In this document: positions 16,586 through 53,282 of the stretch, piece by piece | Layout: every line of letters begins with the position of its first letter | Position numbering within the stretch: the stretch's first letter is position 1 | Assembly (NCBI RefSeq): GCF_013315695.1 | Contig: NZ_CP054353.1 | From: Escherichia coli | Lineage (GTDB): Bacteria; Pseudomonadota; Gammaproteobacteria; Enterobacterales; Enterobacteriaceae | DNA: 64,000 bases | Direction: 5' to 3' (one strand) | Notes under the pieces: model-generated | Database searches by the model: none | Told to the model about the DNA's origin: nothing | Seen by the model: only the letters and a program-made list of their open reading frames with translations | Program-made: the position numbers and the translations under genes

Positions 16586-16673
16586 AAAAAAAACCTGCGC
16601 ATCCGCGCAGGTTGGTGCAAGAGACAGGGTACGAAGAGCGTACCGAATAATCTCACCAATCAATACCTCTGGG
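16586..16673 (-). ncRNA. omrA: OmrA small regulatory RNA (Hfq-dependent, OmpR-regulated)
   Basis: Reverse complement reads cccagaggtattgattggtgagattattcggtacgctcttcgtaccctgtctcttgcaccaacctgcgcggatgcgcaggtttttttt, matching the recalled OmrA sequence with its terminator hairpin and U-tract; located between aas and galR. Confidence 0.9.
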
Positions 16674-16787: not shown

Positions 16788-16870
16788 AAAAAAAAACCTG
16801 CGCATCTGCGCAGGCTGGTGTAATTCATGTGCTCAACCCGAAGTTGACTTCACCTATCAATACCTCTGGG
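16788..16870 (-). ncRNA. omrB: OmrB small regulatory RNA
   Basis: Reverse complement cccagaggtattgataggtgaagtcaacttcgggttgagcacatgaattacaccagcctgcgcagatgcgcaggttttttttt; shares 5-prime and 3-prime ends with OmrA, tandem arrangement. Confidence 0.9.
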
Positions 16871-37287: not shown

Positions 37288-38022
37288 CTACTTATTTTTT
37301 AACCTGATTAAATTAGTTAGAATAGCCCTGTACTTCCATAACAGCCAGCAAGTCGCAATGGACATTAATGCAAGTAAGATAGAAACCGGCATAGTCTTAT
37401 CATAAGCAAAAATAGGTTCGTTAATTTCATATGTTGGTGCTTGTTCAATAATATCTCTTCGTTTTGACAATACGACTGAAATATTCTCATATTGTACGCT
37501 TGCAAAGCTATTAACAATAAATCTCTTAATGTCATTTATTTTTATTTCTGGATTGATATCTTTTTCATATACAGCAAGTACAGAAATATGAATTGGTAAA
37601 GCAGTTTTGCCACTATCACCTGTATCAACATCGTAACTAACATGTACTCTTGAAGAAACAATGCCATCCATAATTTTGAGAGATTGCTCCAAACGCTGTT
37701 CAATAGCAGAATACAATCTTGCTTTTTCCGCTCGTGGAGAGGAAACGAGTGCATCTGCAGGAAACATCTGCGATATTTGAATATCAGGCTTACCCGGGAG
37801 ATTGTAGATTTTTAGCCAATCCACCGCAGAAGCAAAATCCGTTGGTTCTACATAGATTGAAAATCCAATTTTGCCTTGATCCTTCTTCTCAGCATTAATA
37901 TTATGTCTTTGTAAAACAGCAAGGACATCATTAGCTTGCTGTTGATCAAGATGGTTCAGTAATTCCTGCTGCTTGCAACCGCACAACAGCAGGATAAACA
38001 AGAATAATGATATATATTTCAT
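37288..38022 (-). CDS. eprK: T3SS inner-membrane ring lipoprotein (PrgK/EscJ/SctJ family)
   Basis: 244-aa ORF with lipoprotein signal (FILLLCGCKQ), SctJ-like periplasmic region and C-terminal TM anchor. Confidence 0.8.
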   Translation of the reverse strand: MKYISLFLFILLLCGCKQQELLNHLDQQQANDVLAVLQRHNINAEKKDQGKIGFSIYVEPTDFASAVDWLKIYNLPGKPDIQISQMFPADALVSSPRAEKARLYSAIEQRLEQSLKIMDGIVSSRVHVSYDVDTGDSGKTALPIHISVLAVYEKDINPEIKINDIKRFIVNSFASVQYENISVVLSKRRDIIEQAPTYEINEPIFAYDKTMPVSILLALMSIATCWLLWKYRAILTNLIRLKNK

Positions 38023-38351
38023 GAGCGAGTCAACGTCTCAACTGCAGCGACAATTTTTCTTGCTAATGTTCCCACCAATGAAACCTCGACATTATAATTA
38101 AGCACATGATCCTGCAAGACTAATAATTTTTCAGGAGTTAACCCCTTTTTATCAGACCTTAATGCTTGTAACGCATTTTGCTGCCAATTTTCAGTTTGTA
38201 CCGCATAGTTAGCAAAAGCGGAGATCATTTTATCATCCGGGTTATCAAGATTGAGAACCCGGTCATTTAAATCAATAACTTTCGCTTGCTGTATTTCATG
38301 AGCAGCTGATTGCTCAGCTCTATCAATAGGTGGCATATTGCTTACTGACAT
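38019..38351 (-). CDS. eprJ: T3SS inner rod protein (PrgJ/SctI-like)
   Basis: Small ORF between the needle and SctJ genes; track ORF trimmed to MSVSNMPPID. Confidence 0.6.
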   Translation of the reverse strand: MSVSNMPPIDRAEQSAAHEIQQAKVIDLNDRVLNLDNPDDKMISAFANYAVQTENWQQNALQALRSDKKGLTPEKLLVLQDHVLNYNVEVSLVGTLARKIVAAVETLTRS

Positions 38352-38370
38352 AATAAAATCCTTATCCAGT

Positions 38371-38610
38371 TTAGCGGAAGTTTTGTATGATTGCCGAATC
38401 AAGATCTTTATACGCTTTTACAACGTTAGATTGCGCATTTCGATATAATGTATACTCAGCTAATGCACTCTGATATTCGGCAAGGAATTTCGGGTCGGAA
38501 GGATTGGTTGCTAAATCCTCCAACGCTTTTTCAACTTGCTGGTTCAGATCATCAACGCCCTGATCAAATTGTTTGCTGATATCCATAATATAACCATTCC
38601 AATCTGCCAT
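38371..38610 (-). CDS. eprI: T3SS needle filament protein (PrgI/MxiH/SctF family)
   Basis: 79-aa ORF whose C-terminus (YRNAQSNVVKAYKDLDSAIIQNFR) closely matches the needle-protein C-terminus of Salmonella PrgI. Confidence 0.85.
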   Translation of the reverse strand: MADWNGYIMDISKQFDQGVDDLNQQVEKALEDLATNPSDPKFLAEYQSALAEYTLYRNAQSNVVKAYKDLDSAIIQNFR

Positions 38611-38657
38611 AAGTCCTCCTCAATTATTCCTGAAATGTCCACTTGCTACCTTGAGAC

Positions 38658-39425
38658 GGTGATGCTGCCAACTTACTGATTTAGTGTATGATGGTGTTTT
38701 TGAGGTGCTCCAGTGGCTTCTGTTTCTATCAGCTGTCCCTCCTGTTCAGCTACTGACGGGGTGGTGCGTAACGGCAAAAGCACCGCCGGACATCAGCGCT
38801 ATCTCTGCTCTCACTGCCGTAAAACATGGCAACTGCAGTTCACTTACACCGCTTCTCAACCCGGTACGCACCAGAAAATCATTGATATGGCCATGAATGG
38901 CGTTGGATGCCGGGCAACAGCCCGCATTATGGGCGTTGGCCTCAACACGATTTTACGTCACTTAAAAAACTCAGGCCGCAGTCGGTAACCTCGCGCATAC
39001 AGCCGGGCAGTGACGTCATCGTCTGCGCGGAAATGGACGAACAGTGGGGCTATGTCGGGGCTAAATCGCGCCAGCGCTGGCTGTTTTACGCGTATGACAG
39101 GCTCCGGAAGACGGTTGTTGCGCACGTATTCGGTGAACGCACTATGGCGACGCTGGGGCGTCTTATGAGCCTGCTGTCACCCTTTGACGTGGTGATATGG
39201 ATGACGGATGGCTGGCCGCTGTATGAATCCCGCCTGAAGGGAAAGCTGCACGTAATCAGCAAGCGATATACGCAGCGAATTGAGCGGCATAACCTGAATC
39301 TGAGGCAGCACCTGGCACGGCTGGGACGGAAGTCGCTGTCGTTCTCAAAATCGGTGGAGCTGCATGACAAAGTCATCGGGCATTATCTGAACATAAAACA
39401 CTATCAATAAGTTGGAGTCATTACC
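38658..39425 (+). mobile_element. insAB: IS1 insertion sequence, copy A (768 bp; insA 38713-38988, insB 38907-39410)
   Basis: Terminal inverted repeats ggtgatgctgccaacttactgat ... atcaataagttggagtcattacc; InsA (91 aa) and overlapping InsB (167 aa) frames. Confidence 0.97.
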
Positions 39426-39907
39426 GACTTAATGTTATCCCGATAACTCTTCCACCGCTGCGTGAACGTCAGGAAGATATTGAATTACTGGTGCATTACT
39501 TTTTACATCTGCATACCCGTCGTCTGGGATCGGTTTATCCTGGCATTGCTCCGGATGTCGTCGAAATATTGCGTAAGCATCGTTGGCCCGGAAACCTGCG
39601 CGAGTTAAGCAATTTGATGGAATATCTGGTTAACGTGGTTCCTTCAGGTGAAGTTATCGACAGCACGCTATTGCCACCAAATCTGCTGAATAATGGCACA
39701 ACGGAGCAAAGTGATGTAACAGAGGTCAGTGAGGCGCACCTGTCACTCGATGATGCGGGCGGCACGGCGCTGGAGGAGATGGAAAAGCAAATGATCCGCG
39801 AGGCGCTTTCACGTCATAACAGCAAGAAGGAAGTTGCTGATGAACTGGGCATCGGCATTGCTACGCTCTATCGCAAGATTAAGAAATATGAGTTGTTAAA
39901 CACATAA
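39426..39907 (+). pseudogene. ygeV: 3-prime fragment of sigma-54-dependent activator gene ygeV, truncated by IS1
   Basis: The frame is open from the first base after IS1 (LNVIPITLPPLRERQEDIELLVHYFLHLH...), encoding only the end of the AAA+ domain and the C-terminal Fis-type HTH; no N-terminal domain is present. Confidence 0.8.
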
Positions 39908-39946
39908 CCTCAGTGAATCCGGTCTGAATTCAGGCCGGATATCCTT

Positions 39947-40426
39947 TTACTTCGTTTTCTCGCAATCCAGAACTGTATTTACAATCATCTGATACCCCGT
40001 GCAGCGACAAAGATTTCCCGCCAGTCCGCGACGAATTTCCGTAATGGTTAATGGCTTCTCGCGTGGTTTCGCCAGCATTGCCGTGGTAGCCATAATCAGG
40101 CCAGGCGTACAAAACCCGCACTGCACTGCGCCGGATTTCGCATAAGCCTGCTGAACATGAGAAAGTTTTCCGCCTTTCGCTTCACCTTCAAGCGTGCGGA
40201 TCTCTTTTCCTTCAGCCCAGGCGGCAAGGTATAAGCAACTGTCTATTGCTGTGCCGTCGACCAGCACCGTACAGGCACCACATTCACCCACGCAGCACCC
40301 TTGTTTGACACTTAGCAGTCCTTGTTCGCGGAGTAATTCCGAGAGCGGCGTGCCTGGTGCGGCATGAAGCTGAAAAGGCATCCCGTTAATGGTGCATTCG
40401 ATGGTAATTGTTTCGCTGTGATTCAT
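39947..40426 (-). CDS. xdhC: xanthine dehydrogenase Fe-S subunit (2Fe-2S ferredoxin-like)
   Basis: 159-aa ORF with two [2Fe-2S] cysteine clusters ([11 protein letters not shown] and CGFCTPG). Confidence 0.9.
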
Positions 40427-41301
40427 TGCAATTTTCCCCCCGCCGCGGCGACGGCTTCGCTAATCACTTTTTTGGTCATCGTCTGGATGAGATGCAGACG
40501 AAACTCTTTACTGGCCCGCCATGAAGAACGCGGGGCGACATCTTGCAGGACAGATTCGCTGATAGCTTCCAGCGTTTGCAGGTTTAATGGCGCATTTTGT
40601 GCAGTCTGTTCGGCATGTTGGCAGCGAATCGGCGTTGGCGCGGCAACACCAAATGCCAGGCGTAATTCGCTGAAATTGCCGTTATCCAGTCGGCAATGTG
40701 CGGCACAGCCAATCGTTGAAATATCCATTGCGTCGCGCATGGCATATTTAAAATGCGCGCTGCCCGCGTGTTCTTTCGGCTGGGGCGGAAAATGAAAGGC
40801 GACAAGGATTTCGTCATGCTCAAGAGACACTTTGCCCGGCCCAGTGTGAAAGCCATTAATCGGGACGAAACGAACACCGCGCGGGGAGTGAATCTCCAGT
40901 GTCGCGTCATAAATTAGCGTTGGCGTGGCAGAATCTGCGCTGGTAGCACCGTTGCAAATATTTCCACCGTAGGTAGCGACGTTACGGATCTGCGGTCCGG
41001 CAATGGACGAGGCCGCAGCACATAACGCTGGGAGATGACGTTGAGTTACAGGATCTTCAATGAGCTGGGTAAATGTCGTTGCAGAGCCGATACGTAGTGA
41101 GCCATCTTCCGCCAGCGTAATTCCCCGCAGCTCCGCCAGATTATGAATATCAACAATATGGCGATAACGGTCATTGTGATGGTGGAGCTGAATCAGTACG
41201 TCAGTGCCACCGGCGAGCAGTTTGGCCTGCGGGTTGTCAGCCAGCAGGTTGATGGCATCGGCAAGGGTTGCTGCGCGATGGTAAGAAGCAAAATCAAACA
41301 T
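40423..41301 (-). CDS. xdhB: xanthine dehydrogenase FAD-binding subunit
   Basis: 292-aa ORF with CO dehydrogenase flavoprotein-like sequence; overlaps xdhC by 4 nt. Confidence 0.9.
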
Positions 41302-41311
41302 GATGTTATCC

Positions 41312-43570
41312 TCAAATCAATCCTGCCAGATGGAACTCTTCATATAACCGTTTTGGCGTCAGCGGCAGTGTATTGATTGCAACACCGGTAGCCATCTTCA
41401 CCGCGTTACGAATAGCAGCGGCAACAGGAATTATTGGTGGCTCACCCAGTGACTTATGTCCGTATGCGGATTGCGGCTCATTGATTTCGACGAACGCGCT
41501 TTCCAGTTGTGGCAGATCCGGCATGGTCGGCATTTTGTAATCCAGCAGATTGGGGTTACGGACCACGCCGCTTTTCGCATCGATGATCATCTCTTCAAAT
41601 AGCGCCCAGCCAATGCCCATTCCCATTCCGCCGTGTACCTGACCTTCTGCCAGCAGCGGATTTAGAATATGCCCCGAATCATGAACGTTGAGGATGCGGT
41701 TGATGGTGACTTTGCACAGTGCAATATCGACCGTCAGATCAACAAAGGTACAGCCGAACGCCGGTGGGTTAGTGGTGGTTTTGATGGAGCTTTCAGCAGA
41801 GAGCTGCCCGCCGCGTTCAGGGTGGTAGAAAGCGTCCATCGCCAAATCTTTTAACGACATTAACGGTTCTTCCGGTCGTTCAATCAGCACGATATGGCCT
41901 TTTATCAGGGTCAGATTCATCGCTGACTGATGTAGCATGACTGCGGCGTGAGCGATGATTTTCTCTTTTAATAACAGTGCCGCACTGCGCAGCGCAGGCG
42001 CGGCAACATAGCTCTGGCGTGAGGCAAATGCGCCGGGATCGAACGGCGTAACATCGGTATCTTGTGTTGAAATAACGCGAACGTCGCTGACCGGAACCCC
42101 CACGGTTTCTGCCACCATTTGCGAGAAGACGGTGTCGGCACCCTGACCGATTTCCGTCGCGCCGCTTTGCACGTTGATGGTTCCATCCTGATTCATCAGA
42201 AGGCGCGCGCCTGCTATTTCTACGCCGACAGGCCAGGTGTTCGAGGTGTAGCTAAAACAGGCGACGCCAACGCCGCGGCGTAAATTGCCTTTCTGGTTCT
42301 GGCACTCTGCACGGCGTTTTTCCCATTCAAAGATTTTCCGGCCTTTTTCAAGACACTCCGGCAACCCTGCGCTGTAAATACGTTTGCCCGTGAGCGGATT
42401 AGCATCTCCTTCGCGGGCGGCGTTGCGTAAACGAATTTCAACAGGATCAATACCTAACGCTGTCGCGGCGTCATCAAGCATAGACTCAACGGCAAATACG
42501 ACTTGTGGCGCGCCATAACCACGCATCGCACCAGCTGAGGGGAGGTTGGTATAGCAGGTCTTTGAACTGTAAGCGTAGGCACAACGAGGATAAAGGTAAG
42601 CGACTTTATTCCCCCCCGCAGAAGCGATGGAGTGCCCGTGAGATGCGTAAGCGCCGGTGTTAGACAGAACATCCAGACTATAACCTTTCAATGTTCCGTC
42701 GCGGTTCACGCCCATTTGCCCGTCAATAGTAAAAGCGTGGCGGGTACGGGTTGCGAGGAAACACTCTTCACGGCTAAGGGAAACTTTCATCGGAATGCCG
42801 CCAAGCTTGCTGGTCAGGAATGCCGCCATTGGCTCTTCCAGTACATCCTGTTTATTACCAAAACCGCCACCGACAAACGGTTTGATGACTCGTACGCATG
42901 ACCAGGGAATATTCAGCGCCTGACCAACCACACGGCGAACAATGTGTGGGATCTGGGTGCTGGAAACGATGGTAATTCGCGAGTCATCCTCCATCCATGC
43001 CAGCGATGTCACGCTTTCCATGTGACAATGTTGAATGACCGGCGTCTGATAGTGCCCCTGTACCTGGTAGTCGGCGGCATCGATTGTTTGTTGGACATTG
43101 CCCGTCGACATCGTGCTTTGTTTTAGTAAATTGCCGCCGTTATGGATTGGTTCAGCGTCATCAGCCAGCGCCGCTTCTGGGGTGGTGATAACGGGTAATT
43201 CTTGCCACTCAATGCTGACCAATTGCGCCGCTTTTTCTGCCGTGAGTTCATCACGGGCCACGACGATGGCAACGGCGTCACCATGGTGACGAACATGGCG
43301 AGTTAGCAGTGCGCGATCGGCGGTATCGCGCTTGTTTTCGTCAAGTGTCCAGGCATGCCCAGCTGTAGCGAATGGGATATCAGGCACATCTTCCCAGGTA
43401 AAAATCGCCAGTACGCCCGGTAAACTTCTGGCTTGTTCATCATTAATACTTACGGCATAACCATGTGCGATAGGGCTACGTACATATTTCGCGTAACACA
43501 TGCCCGCCATAACATAATCGTCAGTATATCGTGCCCGCCCGGTGACCTTAGCAATGGCATCTACGCGCAT
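41312..43570 (-). CDS. xdhA: xanthine dehydrogenase molybdopterin-binding subunit
   Basis: Track ORF trimmed to MRVDAIAKVTGRARYTDD..., 752 aa, aldehyde oxidase/xanthine dehydrogenase family. Confidence 0.92.
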   Translation of the reverse strand: MRVDAIAKVTGRARYTDDYVMAGMCYAKYVRSPIAHGYAVSINDEQARSLPGVLAIFTWEDVPDIPFATAGHAWTLDENKRDTADRALLTRHVRHHGDAVAIVVARDELTAEKAAQLVSIEWQELPVITTPEAALADDAEPIHNGGNLLKQSTMSTGNVQQTIDAADYQVQGHYQTPVIQHCHMESVTSLAWMEDDSRITIVSSTQIPHIVRRVVGQALNIPWSCVRVIKPFVGGGFGNKQDVLEEPMAAFLTSKLGGIPMKVSLSREECFLATRTRHAFTIDGQMGVNRDGTLKGYSLDVLSNTGAYASHGHSIASAGGNKVAYLYPRCAYAYSSKTCYTNLPSAGAMRGYGAPQVVFAVESMLDDAATALGIDPVEIRLRNAAREGDANPLTGKRIYSAGLPECLEKGRKIFEWEKRRAECQNQKGNLRRGVGVACFSYTSNTWPVGVEIAGARLLMNQDGTINVQSGATEIGQGADTVFSQMVAETVGVPVSDVRVISTQDTDVTPFDPGAFASRQSYVAAPALRSAALLLKEKIIAHAAVMLHQSAMNLTLIKGHIVLIERPEEPLMSLKDLAMDAFYHPERGGQLSAESSIKTTTNPPAFGCTFVDLTVDIALCKVTINRILNVHDSGHILNPLLAEGQVHGGMGMGIGWALFEEMIIDAKSGVVRNPNLLDYKMPTMPDLPQLESAFVEINEPQSAYGHKSLGEPPIIPVAAAIRNAVKMATGVAINTLPLTPKRLYEEFHLAGLI

Positions 43571-44024
43571 GCATGATTCACCTGTAGCGGTTGCTTCCCG
43601 CGCTTCCATAGAAATCCCCTCGATTTGAACATTTGGTTCTTATGGCAAAGATTTAGTCTAAGCAGGCAAGATTTACGCCAGAAACGACGATAAGCGTTAA
43701 GGGAGGAAGGAAGTGTGATGATGTTAAAAAAACACAGATATGATACGAAACAGGACCCTGAATAGGGGCAGTGATACGTATCAATATCAGTGGCGATAAA
43801 ATCAATGTGATAAATTGGGATTATTACGCATCAGGATGGGAAATAGGGTAAATGAGTCAGGAAATTCGATACCTCTACAGTGAATATTTTGCTGATGATA
43901 CTTCCCTTTGCCAAATGAAATTAACCTCTTTCTCTATTACCGCGTTTTTCCAGAAGCAAGAGATTGGGTATCAAGAGGCTGGCTGCTATGATATGGCGTC
44001 TTGTTTTTTAAGCGAGGAAAGATT

Positions 44025-44855: not shown

Positions 44856-44929
44856 GCGGGCGTAGTTCAATGGTAGAACGAGAGCTTCCCAAGCTCTATA
44901 CGAGGGTTCGATTCCCTTCGCCCGCTCCA
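44856..44929 (+). tRNA. glyU: tRNA-Gly (anticodon CCC)
   Basis: 74-nt cloverleaf gcgggcgtagttcaatggtagaacgagagcttcccaagctctatacgagggttcgattcccttcgcccgctcca; anticodon loop ttCCCaa; 3-prime CCA encoded. Confidence 0.95.
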
Positions 44930-45162: not shown

Positions 45163-46608
45163 ATGAAAGGGAAATCTACATTAACTCTTCTGCTCGCTGG
45201 TATATTTTCGTACGGCACATGCCAGGCGGCAGGGGCAGAAGTGACGAGTGAATCTGTATTTAACATTCTTAATTCCACGGGGGCAGCAACTGATAAAAGT
45301 TATTTATCGTTAAATCCAGATAAGTATCCTAATTATCGTCTTCTGATTCACTCAGCCAAATTAAAAAATGAAATAAAGAGCCACTATACCAAAGACGAAA
45401 TTCAAGGATTGTTAACATTAACAGAAAATACACGAAAGTTAACGTTGACGGAGAAACCCTGGGGAACATTTATTCTTGCTTCTACTTTCGAAGATGACAA
45501 AACAGCGGCAGAAACCCACTATGATGCTGTCTGGCTGAGGGATAGTTTATGGGGCTATATGGCATTAGTATCAGATCAGGGAAATAGTGTAGCCGCAAAA
45601 AAGGTTCTGCTCACTCTGTGGGAATATATGTCTACGCCCGACCAGATTAAGCGGATGCAGGACGTCATTAGCAACCCAAAACGACTGGATGGTATTCCTG
45701 GGCAAATGAATGCTGTACATATCCGATTTGACAGCAACTCCCCCGTGATGGCAGATGTGCAGGAAGAAGGCAAGCCGCAGCTGTGGAACCATAAACAAAA
45801 TGATGCGTTAGGTCTTTATCTTGATCTCCTTATACAAGCAATCGACACTGGTACTATTAACGCTGAAGATTGGCAAAAAGGTGACCGATTAAAATCGGTT
45901 GCGCTGCTGATTGCTTATCTGGATAAAGCCAATTTCTATGTTATGGAAGATTCCGGAGCGTGGGAGGAAGATGCCCGATTAAACACATCTTCCGTTGCAC
46001 TGGTGACCTCTGGACTGGAACGTTTGTCAAACCTACTCTCGAAGAAAGACTCTGTTTTTGTCTCTGATTTACTACGCGAAGCTAAAGCCAATGAACTGGA
46101 TGAACCACTTTCAACAACGAGGTTGAACCACCTCATAGATAAAGGTTATGAAAGAATAACGCTACAGCTTGATTTAGGGGGAGAATCTCCTGGTTATCTG
46201 GAAAAAGATAAACATTACAGAGAAGCCGATGCGGCTTTACTTAATGTTATTTATCCTGCAAATCTTTCAAAGATAAACACCAGAAGAAAAGAGCAAGTTC
46301 TAAAAATAGTTAAAAAACTAGCAGGTCCGTATGGTATAAAAAGATACGAGAAGGATAATTATCAGTCGGCAAATTTTTGGTTCAATGATATTAAAACCGA
46401 TACCGATCAAAATTCACATGCGAAAAGAGAAATGAGCTTCATTCCATCAACAGAAGCAGAATGGTTTTTTGACTCATGGTATGCAAAATCAGCAGCAATT
46501 GTTTATAAAGAATCAAGAAAAGAAGAGTATTTGAATGACTCAGTGCAATTTATGAATAGATCATTGGCCCAAATAACAGGCGAGAAGGTAATGACTCCAA
46601 CTTATTGA
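45163..46608 (+). CDS. glycoside hydrolase family 15 (glucoamylase-like) lipoprotein, ygeQ-like; 3-prime end runs into IS1
   Basis: Long ORF with signal peptide/lipobox ([16 protein letters not shown]) and GH15-like motif (DAVWLRDS); the last ~7 codons and the stop are supplied by IS1 sequence starting at 46587, so the native C-terminus is missing; start codon uncertain (45121-45163). Confidence 0.6.
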
Positions 46609-47354
46609 TAGTGTTTTATGTTCAGATAATGCCCGATGACTTTGTCATGCAGCTCCACCGATTTTGAGAACGACAGCGACTTCCGTCCCAGCCGTGCCAG
46701 GTGCTGCCTCAGATTCAGGTTATGCCGCTCAATTCGCTGCGTATATCGCTTGCTGATTACGTGCAGCTTTCCCTTCAGGCGGGATTCATACAGCGGCCAG
46801 CCATCCGTCATCCATATCACCACGTCAAAGGGTGACAGCAGGCTCATAAGACGCCCCAGCGTCGCCATAGTGCGTTCACCGAATACGTGCGCAACAACCG
46901 TCTTCCGGAGCCTGTCATACGCGTAAAACAGCCAGCGCTGGCGCGATTTAGCCCCGACATAGCCCCACTGTTCGTCCATTTCCGCGCAGACGATGACGTC
47001 ACTGCCCGGCTGTATGCGCGAGGTTACCGACTGCGGCCTGAGTTTTTTAAGTGACGTAAAATCGTGTTGAGGCCAACGCCCATAATGCGGGCTGTTGCCC
47101 GGCATCCAACGCCATTCATGGCCATATCAATGATTTTCTGGTGCGTACCGGGTTGAGAAGCGGTGTAAGTGAACTGCAGTTGCCATGTTTTACGGCAGTG
47201 AGAGCAGAGATAGCGCTGATGTCCGGCGGTGCTTTTGCCGTTACGCACCACCCCGTCAGTAGCTGAACAGGAGGGACAGCTGATAGAAACAGAAGCCACT
47301 GGAGCACCTCAAAAACACCATCATACACTAAATCAGTAAGTTGGCAGCATCACC
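46587..47354 (-). mobile_element. insAB: IS1 insertion sequence, copy B (768 bp; insA 47024-47299, insB 46602-47105), inverted relative to copy A
   Basis: InsA and InsB ORFs identical in protein sequence to copy A but on the minus strand; terminal inverted repeats at 46587 and 47354. Confidence 0.97.
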
Positions 47355-47992
47355 CGATGGGGATGTTCCTGGCACTGGGTGAAATAGTCGGTCGTAAACT
47401 CTCTTCACACGATATTATTCGCGGGCTGCGTGTCGATGGCGTAGGGACAATGATAGGCGGAACGTTTAACAGCTTCCCCCACACGTCATTTTCACAAAAC
47501 GTTGGCCTGGTTAGCGTGACGCGCGTTCATAGCCGCTGGGTGTGTATTTCTTCGGGAATTATATTAATCCTGTTTGGCATGGTGCCAAAAATGGCGGTGC
47601 TGGTCGCCTCCATTCCGCAATTTGTGCTGGGCGGTGCTGGGCTGGTGATGTTCGGCATGGTACTGGCGACAGGGATTCGAATTCTGTCGCGCTGTAACTA
47701 CACCACCAACCGTTACAACCTCTATATTGTGGCGATCAGTCTCGGCGTTGGCATGACTCCGACGCTCTCTCACGATTTCTTTTCTAAGTTACCGGCCGTA
47801 CTGCAACCGTTGCTGCATAGCGGCATTATGCTCGCAACCCTTAGCGCCGTTGTGCTGAACGTCTTCTTTAATGGCTATCAGCATCATGCTGATCTGGTGA
47901 AGGAATCCGTCTCTGATAAAGATTTAAAAGTCAGGACAGTACGTATGTGGCTTCTGATGCGCAAGCTGAAGAAAAATGAGCATGGAGAATAA
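47355..47992 (+). pseudogene. ygfU: 3-prime fragment of nucleobase:cation symporter gene (ygfU/uacT-like), truncated by IS1
   Basis: Frame opens directly at the IS1 boundary and encodes only the C-terminal ~210 residues (several TM helices) of an NCS2-family permease; N-terminal part absent. Confidence 0.75.
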
Positions 47993-48832: not shown

Positions 48833-50350
48833 TTATTTCACCGGACGCATCGCCGGGAACAGAATAACGTCGCGGATGGTATGGCTGTTGGTGAACAGCA
48901 TTACCATACGGTCGATACCAATTCCCAGACCTGCTGTCGGCGGTAAGCCATGTTCCAGTGCGGTGACGTAATCTTCATCGTAGAACATCGCTTCGTCGTC
49001 ACCTGCATCTTTCGCGGCAACCTGATCCAGGAAGCGCTGCGCCTGATCTTCCGCGTCATTCAGTTCGCTAAAGCCGTTACCGATTTCACGACCACCGATA
49101 AAGAACTCAAAGCGGTCTGTGATTTCCGGGTTAACGTCGTTACGACGCGCCAGCGGAGAAACTTCTGCCGGATATTCAGTAATGAAGGTCGGCTGAATCA
49201 GATGTGCTTCTGCCACTTCTTCGAAGATCTCGGTAACGATACGGCCCAGACCCCAGCTCTTCTCAACGTGGATGCCGATAGATTCAGCAATCGCTTTCGC
49301 AGAGTCGAAGTTGTCCAGATCCGCCATGTCGGTTTCCGGGCGATATTTCTTGATCGCTTCACGCATGGTCAGTTTTTCGAACGGTTTACCGAAGTCCAGC
49401 GTTACGTCGCCGTAGGTCACTTCCGTCTTACCGAGAATATCCTGTGCCAGAGTACGGAACAGCGATTCGGTCAGCTCGATCAGATCTTTGTAATCTGCGT
49501 AAGCCATATAGAGTTCCATCATGGTGAACTCTGGGTTATGACGTACGGAAATACCTTCGTTACGGAAGTTACGGTTGATTTCGAATACACGCTCGAAGCC
49601 ACCGACCACCAGACGCTTGAGGTACAGTTCCGGCGCGATACGCAGGTACATGTCGAGATCCAGCGCGTTATGGTGAGTGATAAACGGACGCGCAGCGGCA
49701 CCGCCAGGGATCACCTGCATCATCGGCGTTTCAACTTCCATAAAGCCGCGGTTCACCATGAACTGGCGAATACCAGAGAGGATCTGCGAGCGCACTTTAA
49801 AGGTGTTGCGGGATTCATCGTTAGAGATGAGATCCAGATAACGCTGACGATAGCGCGCTTCCTGATCCTGCAAGCCGTGGAATTTATCCGGCAGCGGACG
49901 CAGTGCTTTGGTCAGCAGACGCAGCTCGGTACAGTGGATAGACAGTTCGCCGGTTTTGGTTTTGAACAGTTTACCTTTCGCGCCGAGGATGTCACCAAGG
50001 TCCCATTTTTTGAATTGATCGTTATAAACGCCTTCCGGCAGATCGTCACGGGCAACGTACAGCTGAATGCGACCGCCAACGTCCTGCAGGGTAACGAAAG
50101 ACGCTTTACCCATAATACGACGGGTCATCATGCGGCCAGCAACGGCGACTTCGATGTTCAGCGCTTCCAGTTCTTCGTTCTCTTTGCCGTCGAATTCTGC
50201 GTGCAATTGGTCAGAGGTATGATCGCGACGGAAATCGTTCGGGAAGGCAATCCCCTGCTCGCGCAGGTTCGCCAGCTTCTCACGACGCGTTTTCAGTTCA
50301 TTGTTAAGATCGACTACCGCGTCAGCGCCCTGTGCGTTTTGTTCAGACAT
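48833..50350 (-). CDS. lysS: lysyl-tRNA synthetase (constitutive)
   Basis: 505-aa class II aaRS ORF ([33 protein letters not shown]...). Confidence 0.97.
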
Positions 50351-50359
50351 GTTGGTTCC

Positions 50360-51458
50360 TCATAACCCTGCTTTCAAACTTGCTTCGATAAATTGATCCA
50401 GGCTGCCGTCCAGCACGGCCTGCGTGTTGCGGGTTTCTACCCCGGTGCGCAGATCTTTAATGCGGGAGTCATCAAGGACATAAGAACGAATCTGGCTGCC
50501 CCAGCCGATGTCGGATTTGTTATCTTCCATCGCCTGTTTCTCGGCATTTTTCTTCTGCATCTCCAGTTCATAAAGCTTCGCTTTCATCTGCTTCATGGCC
50601 TGGTCTTTGTTCTTGTGCTGGGAACGGTCGTTCTGGCACTGAGTCACGATCCCGGTTGGGATGTGAGTAATACGCACCGCAGATTCGGTACGGTTAACGT
50701 GCTGACCGCCCGCGCCGGATGCGCGATAAACGTCGATGCGCAGATCCGCCGGATTGATTTCGATATCGATATCATCATCAACTTCCGGGTAAACAAACGC
50801 GGAGCTGAACGACGTGTGGCGACGACCGCCGGAGTCAAACGGGCTCTTACGCACCAGGCGGTGAACGCCGGTTTCTGTACGCAGCCAGCCATAAGCGTAA
50901 TCGCCGGAGATTTTGATCGTCACGGATTTAATACCCGCCACTTCACCTTCCGACTCTTCAATGATTTCAGTTTTGAAACCACGCGATTCAGCCCAGCGCA
51001 GATACATACGCTCAAGCATGCTCGCCCAGTCCTGTGCTTCCGTACCGCCAGACCCCGCCTGAATATCGAGGTAGCAGTCGGCGCTGTCATATTCGCCAGA
51101 GAACATACGGCGGAACTCAAGCTGCGCCAGTTTTTCTTCCAGGGCGTCGAGTTCAGCAACGGCTTCGTTAAAGGTTTCTTCGTCGTCAGCTTCTACAGCC
51201 AGTTCCAGCAGACCAGAAACATCTTCCAGCCCCTGCTTCATTTGGTCGAGGGTGTCGACAACGGCTTCGAGGGAGGAACGCTCTTTACCCAGCGCCTGTG
51301 CGCGTTCGGGTTCGTTCCAGACATCCGGCTGTTCCAGCTCGGCGTTTACTTCTTCCAGACGCTCTTTCTTGGCGTCATAGTCAAAGATACCCCCTAAGAA
51401 CGTCGGAGCGTTCCGTGAGGTCCTGAATGCGATTATTTATCGGATTAATTTCAAACAT
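50360..51458 (-). CDS. prfB: peptide chain release factor 2, expressed via programmed +1 ribosomal frameshift
   Basis: Frame 0 from ATG at 51456-51458 encodes [25 protein letters not shown] and then TGA (plus-strand 51381-51383) within the canonical slippery context AGG GGG UAU CUU UGA C; the +1 frame continues into the 293-aa track ORF (50360..51241) containing the GGQ motif. Confidence 0.95.
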
Positions 51459-51548
51459 GGTCTGATTTCTTTTATTGAGCTAGTCAAAATGCGGTGATAA
51501 GAGCGGGATTGTACCCAATCCACGCTCTTTTTTATAGAGAAGATGACG

Positions 51549-53282
51549 CTAAATTGGCCAGATATTGTCGATGATAATTTGCAGGCTGCGGTTGCCGCGA
51601 AACTCGTTGATATCGAGCTTGTAAGCCAGTTGCACTTCGCGCACGCCGTTATCCGGCCAGAGGGCGGTATCGACATTAAAAGCAATACCATCCAGCAGCG
51701 GACCGCCGCCGACCGGCTCGACCATGACTTTCAAATGACGCTCGCCCACCAGCCGCTGTTGCAGCAGACGGAAATGACCATCAAACAGCGGCTCCGGGAA
51801 CATCTGCCCCCACGGGCCAGCATCGCGCAACAGCTGCGCCACTTCCATGGTCATTTCGGCCGGACTTAACGGACCGTCCGACACCACTTCGCCTTGCAAT
51901 AAAGAAGGATCTAACCACTCAGTAACCAGTTCGCCAAACCGTTGTTGAAAGAGTTCGAATTTATCCTCTTCCAGCGACAAACCCGCCGCCATCGCATGAC
52001 CGCCAAACTTGAGCATCATGCCAGGGTAGAGCGTGTCTAACCGCTCCAGCGCATCACGCATATGTAGCCCCTGAATGGAGCGACCGGAACCTTTCAGCGT
52101 ACCATCACCTGCTGGCGCAAAGGCGATAACCGGACGGTGAAAACGCTCTTTGATGCGCGAAGCCAGAATACCGACCACGCCCTGATGCCATTCGGGGTGA
52201 TACATTGCCAGCCCGCCGGGTAGTGTGTCACGGCTGCGCTCCAGTTTCTCGCACAGGGTCAGGGCTTCAATCTGCATTCCTTGTTCGATCTCTTTTCGCG
52301 TCTGGTTTAGCGCATCGAGTTCATTTGCCAGCACGCGCGCTTCGCCGATGTTGTCGCACAGCAACAGCGCCACACCAACGGACATATCATCCAGTCGCCC
52401 GGCAGCATTGAGACGTGGCCCCAGCGCAAAACCTAAATCGCTGGCGGCGAGTTTTTGCGCATCGCGATTTGCCACTTCCAGCAGCGCTTTAATCCCCGGA
52501 CGGCACTTACCGGCACGGATGCGACTCATCCCCTGCCAGGTCAGAATGCGATTATTAGCGTCCAGCGGTACGACGTCCGCCACTGTCCCCAGCGCGACCA
52601 GATCCAGCAGTTCTGCCAGATTAGGAATTGCGATGCCGCGCTCATCAAACCAGCCCTGATCGCGCAAAAAGGTGCGCAGAGCCAGCATCAGATAAAACGC
52701 CACACCCACGCCTGCCAGTGATTTCGACGGGAAATTACAGTCGCGCAAGTTAGGGTTAATGATCGCTTCCGCTGCGGGTAATGTGTCGCCTGGCAAATGG
52801 TGATCGGTAACAATAACCGGAATGCCCAACGAACGAGCGTGTTCAACCCCCGCATGGGAGGAAATACCGTTATCCACCGTGACAATTAACTGCGCGCCAC
52901 GGGCATGAGCCTGATCGACTACTTCCGGGCTTAAGCCGTAACCGTCTTCGAAACGGTTTGGAACCAGGTAGTCGATATTGCTGCAACCAAGCGAGCGCAT
53001 CGCCAGCACGCTTAGAGCCGTGCTGGTGGCCCCGTCGGCGTCGAAATCACCGACCACAATAATCCGCGTTCCTTCGCGAAAAGCGTTGTAAAGGATCTCA
53101 ACGGCCTTTTCGACGCCGCTCAGTTGCTGCCAGGGCAGCAACCCTTTAACACTGCGTTCCAGTTCTTGCGCACTGCGTACTCCCCGGCTGGCGTATAAAC
53201 GGCGCAGCAAGGGAGGCAATTCAGCGGGCAAGTCGGCCGTTTCATCGACTTCTCGGCGACGAAGTTGTATCTGTTGTTTCAC
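51549..53282 (-). CDS. recJ: single-stranded-DNA-specific 5-prime to 3-prime exonuclease RecJ
   Basis: 577-aa DHH-family ORF. Confidence 0.95.
   Translation of the reverse strand: MKQQIQLRRREVDETADLPAELPPLLRRLYASRGVRSAQELERSVKGLLPWQQLSGVEKAVEILYNAFREGTRIIVVGDFDADGATSTALSVLAMRSLGCSNIDYLVPNRFEDGYGLSPEVVDQAHARGAQLIVTVDNGISSHAGVEHARSLGIPVIVTDHHLPGDTLPAAEAIINPNLRDCNFPSKSLAGVGVAFYLMLALRTFLRDQGWFDERGIAIPNLAELLDLVALGTVADVVPLDANNRILTWQGMSRIRAGKCRPGIKALLEVANRDAQKLAASDLGFALGPRLNAAGRLDDMSVGVALLLCDNIGEARVLANELDALNQTRKEIEQGMQIEALTLCEKLERSRDTLPGGLAMYHPEWHQGVVGILASRIKERFHRPVIAFAPAGDGTLKGSGRSIQGLHMRDALERLDTLYPGMMLKFGGHAMAAGLSLEEDKFELFQQRFGELVTEWLDPSLLQGEVVSDGPLSPAEMTMEVAQLLRDAGPWGQMFPEPLFDGHFRLLQQRLVGERHLKVMVEPVGGGPLLDGIAFNVDTALWPDNGVREVQLAYKLDINEFRGNRSLQIIIDNIWPI

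Follow-up and report, generated by a model that had tools for sequence, protein, structure and literature searches.

The split reading frame that we analyzed here is almost certainly the canonical autoregulatory +1 programmed ribosomal frameshift site of Escherichia coli prfB, the gene for release factor 2 (RF2). The site lies on the minus strand of a 64-kb stretch of DNA (64,000 nucleotides, hereafter the window), which is E. coli DNA with the gene order xerD-dsbC-recJ-prfB-lysS-idi. The assignment is based on how the site is built, on what the joined product is, on a cassette identical to that of strain K-12, and on conservation both within E. coli and between species. Slippage as such, the contribution of pairing between the Shine-Dalgarno (SD)-like sequence and the anti-SD, and the feedback by RF2 are carried over to this strain from the literature, and we word them accordingly below. 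A TGA at codon 26, an upstream SD-like sequence, CTT T, and a following C are the described elements of autoregulatory prfB +1 frameshifting, and both +1 shifting and the dependence of its efficiency on RF2 have been shown experimentally for the identical K-12 cassette (PMC12421855). The site is already known: it is the type example of the prfB +1 frameshift family, in the type species, and a textbook case of a translation factor that senses its own concentration, to which the copy in the window adds nothing new.

The initial annotation had placed a canonical prfB frameshift site at positions 51381-51386 and described a frame 0 that terminates at TGA after 25 codons, within AGG GGG UAU CUU UGA C, with the +1 frame encoding the remainder of RF2. 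All of this was borne out by the letters of the window. Positions 51386..51381 of the minus strand read CTT TGA, so that the coordinates cover exactly the slippery codon and the stop; C follows at 51380, and the full string AGG GGG UAU CUU UGA C occupies 51395..51380. In its wider surroundings the minus strand reads GAC GTT CTT AGG GGG TAT CTT TGA CTA TGA CGC C. The AGGGGG element, which is the reported consensus of the prfB internal SD-like sequence (PMC12421855), lies exactly 3 nt 5' of the CUU codon, as in the prfB cassette. The features of the gene and its downstream neighbor are as follows.

51384..51458, minus strand: prfB frame-0 segment, consisting of the ATG at 51458..51456 and 24 more sense codons, the last of which is CUU (Leu25)
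51381..51458, minus strand: the corresponding entry in the open reading frame (ORF) list, a 25-amino-acid ORF with an ATG start, whose translation ends at the TGA
51390..51395, minus strand: internal SD-like AGGGGG, doubling as the Arg22-Gly23 codons and identical in K-12
51387..51389, minus strand: 3-nt spacer, the UAU codon of Tyr24, which would occupy the E site while the P site holds CUU
51383..51386, minus strand: slippery sequence CUU U, made up of the Leu25 codon and the first base of the stop (window letters; PMC12421855)
51381..51383, minus strand: in-frame, RF2-specific UGA stop, codon 26 of frame 0
51380, minus strand: C directly 3' of the UGA, forming the weak UGA-C termination context and serving as the third base of GAC (Asp26) (PMC12421855)
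50360..51382, minus strand: prfB +1-frame segment, from GAC (Asp26) to Leu365 and then TGA, with SPF at residues 205-207 and GGQ at residues 250-252
48833..50350, minus strand: lysS (lysine-tRNA ligase), directly downstream and co-directional, starting 9 nt past the prfB stop

Translation of both frames gave 25 codons and a stop in frame 0 (ATG at 51458 to TGA at 51383..51381) and an open +1 frame. From the GAC at 51382..51380, the +1 frame stays open for 340 codons and ends at the TGA at 50362..50360; its only stops in the gene region are this terminal one and one upstream of the site. Frame 0, by comparison, carries 25 stops across the gene beyond the site. The 16-mer AGGGGGNNNCTTTGAC occurs once in the 64-kb window. 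Allowing up to one mismatch, 0.06 matches to it are expected by chance, and 6 of 100 shuffled sequences contained one. A chance origin is nevertheless untenable, because the match falls at codon 26 of an RF2 homologue and recurs across species and across E. coli genomes.

The motif is widespread among bacteria. Surveys of the prfB frameshift motif across Bacteria were reportedly made by Baranov in 2002 and Bekaert in 2006. In a more recent survey of 12,753 genomes, the motif was present in 64%, with the consensus AGGGGG-N3-CTTTGAC and a stop that was TGA in nearly all cases and the RF1-specific TAG in none (PMC12421855, Prince et al. 2025). The window fits this consensus with no difference of substance. 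We scanned one genome per species for AGGGGGNNTCTTTGAC, a pattern that itself fixes AGGGGG in every match, and obtained at least 120 loci. For each locus listed, the frame-0 leader and its +1-frame continuation were translated and compared with the RF2 of the window by blastp. Split RF2 genes with the site at the homologous place made up 109 of the 120 matches listed, and in 107 of these 109 the protein alignment crosses the junction. Among the matches listed, taxa included Bacillota, Bacteroidota, Gemmatimonadota, Myxococcota, Fusobacteriota, and many Pseudomonadota; frame-0 leaders were mostly 20 to 27 codons long; and the commonest spacer was TAT (62 of 109 sites). Other lineages differ from the window in the spacer codon (TCT, TTT, or CAT) and in leader length. 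Protein identity to the RF2 of the window ranged from 42% to 99% (median, 62%) in the 96 near-full-length cases among the matches listed. That the 16-nt string is kept while the proteins diverge to 42% identity indicates a constraint at the nucleotide level, which is what a recoding signal would predict and which agrees with the published survey. Of the 11 other matches listed, two reach the end of their contig after a few codons, too early to be scored, and the remaining ones look like chance matches.

By analogy with the K-12 site, ribosomes would start at the ATG at 51458 and translate 25 codons, bringing peptidyl-tRNA-Leu on CUU into the P site and UGA-C into the A site. When RF2 is abundant, the UGA would be read and a 25-residue peptide released. 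When RF2 is scarce, the ribosome would pause at the weak UGA-C stop, and the internal AGGGGG, 3 nt 5' of the CUU, would pair with the anti-SD of 16S rRNA and destabilize or displace the E-site tRNA. The P-site tRNA-Leu could then re-pair one base forward, from CUU to UUU, whereupon GAC would enter the A site and translation in the +1 frame would yield the full 365-amino-acid RF2. In this way, the RF2 concentration would set the rate of its own synthesis through the choice between termination and a +1 slip at UGA-C. The anti-SD tail of the host 16S rRNA is expected to be present, as the organism is E. coli; the 64-kb window itself contains no rRNA genes at Rfam gathering thresholds, at which only OmrA, OmrB, and one tRNA were found. 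A scan of positions 50300-51700 against Rfam gave no match at an E value of ≤1, and Rfam has no family for the prfB frameshift element. When 140 nt around the site were folded, the minimum free energy of -37.4 kcal/mol (z = -1.23) was not significant, with 23 of 200 shuffled sequences folding at least as well. The lack of a significant fold is consistent with a site that works through SD pairing and a stop codon, without a downstream pseudoknot or stimulator.

A +1 shift could also occur without re-pairing of the P-site tRNA-Leu, as in Ty3, if the first base of the A site were occluded and Asp-tRNA bound out of frame at GAC; CUU U would then matter for the weakness of the P-site interaction rather than for slippage. 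The near-universal GAC after the T among the matches listed fits either mechanism, and sequence alone does not discriminate between them. What speaks against occlusion is the slippery sequence: CTT T hardly varies across bacteria, and the few sites that depart from it have TTT T tracts, on which a tRNA can likewise re-pair in the +1 frame (PMC12421855), as the re-pairing mechanism predicts. Classical mutagenesis of the E. coli site, which is established knowledge and is summarized in the same paper, likewise supports P-site slippage. We therefore give occlusion only a slim chance and retain slippage of the P-site tRNA-Leu as the mechanism that the window copy would use.

Within E. coli, we searched complete genomes with a 1.4-kb query around the gene, which was found once each in 5,425 of 5,426 genomes, placing prfB at a single location per genome. 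A 30-mer across the cassette (51407..51378) was likewise present once per genome in 5,416 of the 5,426, with all matches in the ≥99% identity band. A longer 50-mer (51361-51410) that includes the synonymous codon TAT27 was exact in 997 of 5,417 matching genomes and had one or two mismatches in the other 4,420. The 1.4-kb query was 100% identical to the E. coli isolates AF3 and MSB1_4I, and in AF3 the genes run in the order xerD, dsbC, recJ, prfB, lysS, idi, yqfH, and yqfG. The RefSeq/PGAP annotation of AF3, whose prfB DNA is identical, gives a coding sequence joined from two pieces and labeled "programmed frameshift," and prfB of K-12 MG1655 is annotated in the same way, with two pieces and that label. 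The 10 of 5,426 genomes without an exact 30-mer comprised one with no prfB match at all and nine that have the gene, and 1 of the 5,425 prfB matches was on a record labeled as a plasmid. Mis-assembly or natural variation of the cassette could account for the genomes without the 30-mer and for the one with a plasmid-labeled prfB.

We also compared the window with K-12 directly. The cassette CTTAGGGGGTATCTTTGAC (CTT AGG GGG TAT CTT TGA C) is identical, as are the stop at codon 26, the 3-nt spacer, the 365-amino-acid product, and the recJ-prfB-lysS context. The two sequences differ only in alleles, all of which lie outside the cassette: 17 nucleotide differences over the 1,099-nt gene, 15 of which fall on the third base of a codon when the shift is used to set the frames, and two amino acid changes in RF2, V7I and T246A. 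This pattern indicates that both segments are translated in the shift-defined frames and are under purifying selection. Codon 7 (51438-51440, minus strand), in the frame-0 leader, is GTA in K-12 and ATA in the window. At codon 27, which lies 4 nt past the shift, K-12 has TAC and the window the synonymous TAT. At codon 246 (50724-50726, minus strand), the window encodes Ala where K-12 encodes Thr. The Thr246 form of RF2 has been reported to be peculiar to K-12 and less active, with Ala in other E. coli strains (PMC5373646), so that the window carries the ordinary E. coli form of the protein. It is quite improbable that the 25-residue termination product, which carries V7I relative to K-12, is a functional small peptide, or that the combination of the Ala246, V7I, and UAU27 alleles shifts the autoregulatory set point relative to K-12; conservation of the leader is already explained, because its residues are part of the N terminus of mature RF2.

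These comparisons bear on whether the split ORF might instead be a pseudogene, or the product of an assembly or sequencing indel, and not a case of recoding. A single extra base does resemble a frameshift mutation or a homopolymer error, and runs of five G's and three T's adjoin the site. However, an indel would have to account for an identical interruption, once per genome, in nearly all complete E. coli assemblies (5,416 of 5,426) and for its presence at the homologous position in RF2 genes of distant phyla (109 among the matches listed). Gene decay would also be a poor match for the differences from K-12, since 15 of the 17 are synonymous third-position changes in the shift-defined frames. 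Moreover, prfB has a single location per genome, and RF2 is, to our knowledge, the sole factor that reads UGA. We consider the probability of a pseudogene or indel to be negligible, and the warning in the initial annotation that the split ORF should not be taken for a pseudogene was well placed in light of the conservation and the third-position substitutions. The prfB +1 frameshift site should accordingly be annotated as a join of 51458..51384 and 51382..50360 (minus strand) under the name prfB, and not as a pseudogene or as two hypothetical ORFs.

The joined product itself was identified from its sequence. The 25 codons of frame 0 and the 340 codons of the +1 frame make up a 365-amino-acid protein that scored 525.9 bits against the NCBIfam model TIGR00020 (prfB; cut-off, 370) and fell under the cut-offs of the RF1 models. 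It contains the PCRF and RF-1 Pfam domains, the stop-recognition tripeptide SPF at residue 205, and the catalytic GGQ at residue 250. Its residues 1-365 align to residues 1-365 of the E. coli RF2 crystal structure 1gqe_A (E value of ~1e-240), and 1ml5 was also matched. As judged by family models, domains, and structures, the joined frame-0/+1 product is full-length RF2, in keeping with what had been claimed for the +1 frame.

If AGGGGG were an ordinary ribosome-binding site, for which it is a good SD sequence, the locus could encode two separate products, the 25-amino-acid frame-0 peptide and an independently initiated, N-terminally truncated RF2. However, the +1 frame contains no ATG, GTG, or TTG in the stretch from its preceding stop to the site; translation in it could begin no earlier than Met74, which lies 140 nt 3' of the SD-like AGGGGG. 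Because the +1 frame has no start before Met74, residues 26-73 of RF2 can be reached only by a ribosome that comes from frame 0. In addition, the solved E. coli RF2 chains (1gqe and 1ml5) include the frame-0 N terminus, residues 1-25, fused to the +1 frame, and the cross-species alignments span the junction in all but two of the 109 cases among the matches listed. Independent initiation is thus vanishingly unlikely, and a single RF2 made by +1 frameshifting is the reading that we adopt, with no observation speaking against it. Transcriptional slippage was rejected by inference, as the site lacks long runs of A or T (having just T3 and G5), the interruption is encoded in the DNA and fixed across genomes, and the proteins match the ribosomal +1 join.

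We noted several further features around prfB. The terminal stop of the gene is also a TGA, which is read by RF2; its context is TGA G, and it overlaps the GAGG SD sequence of lysS (50350-50365, minus strand). The tight spacing between prfB and lysS is compatible with translational coupling. In the 90-nt spacer between recJ and prfB, a crude sigma-70 scan found nothing promoter-like. The same spacer holds an inverted repeat at 51498-51530 (AAGAGCG-GGATTG..CAATCC-CGCTCTT). Only on the plus strand, where a run of T's follows it, does the repeat score as resembling an intrinsic terminator; on the minus strand, that of the gene, a run of A's precedes it. From its sequence, this repeat could be a recJ terminator, an antisense terminator, or nothing.

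Elsewhere, the window contains two 768-bp copies of IS1 that are 100% identical and in inverted orientation, at 38658-39425 (plus strand) and 46587-47354 (minus strand). The InsA/InsB' -1 programmed frameshift motif TTAAAAAAC is present in both, the A6C being at 38964-38970 (plus strand) and 47048-47042 (minus strand), and PGAP labels such copies "IS1A family transposase, programmed frameshift." IS1 InsAB' resembles prfB in that it uses a programmed ribosomal frameshift and is annotated by PGAP as a two-piece coding sequence. Unlike the prfB site, it shifts in the opposite direction (-1, on A AAA AAC) and involves no stop codon or release-factor sensing. Moreover, the IS1 frameshift sets the ratio of transposase to inhibitor, whereas that of prfB forms a feedback loop on a translation factor.

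Next to the second IS1 copy, an ORF matching uacT (urate/proton symporter; 47357-47992, plus strand) lacks its N terminus and begins 3 bp from the end of the element, and the AF3 annotation lists uacT, within an identical region, as an incomplete pseudogene. Such an arrangement points to a deletion or truncation, associated with IS1, in the interval from tRNA-Gly to uacT. The tRNA-Gly(CCC) gene lies at 44856-44929 (plus strand). In AF3, the closest genome, the counterpart of positions ~30000-44000 of the window contains type III secretion genes (PrgH/EprH, EscJ, SctI, SctT, EscU, and others), several of which are frameshifted or interrupted by IS1 and which adjoin tRNA-Gly(CCC), so that the stretch resembles a degenerate island of the ETT2 type. 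Collinearity between the window and AF3 breaks down there: the tRNA is 1,389 bp off its predicted position, and AF3 has four copies of IS1 versus two in the window. Finally, tandem genes for the small RNAs OmrA and OmrB are present at 16586-16673 and 16789-16870, both on the minus strand (Rfam RF00079; 96.6 and 86.1 bits).
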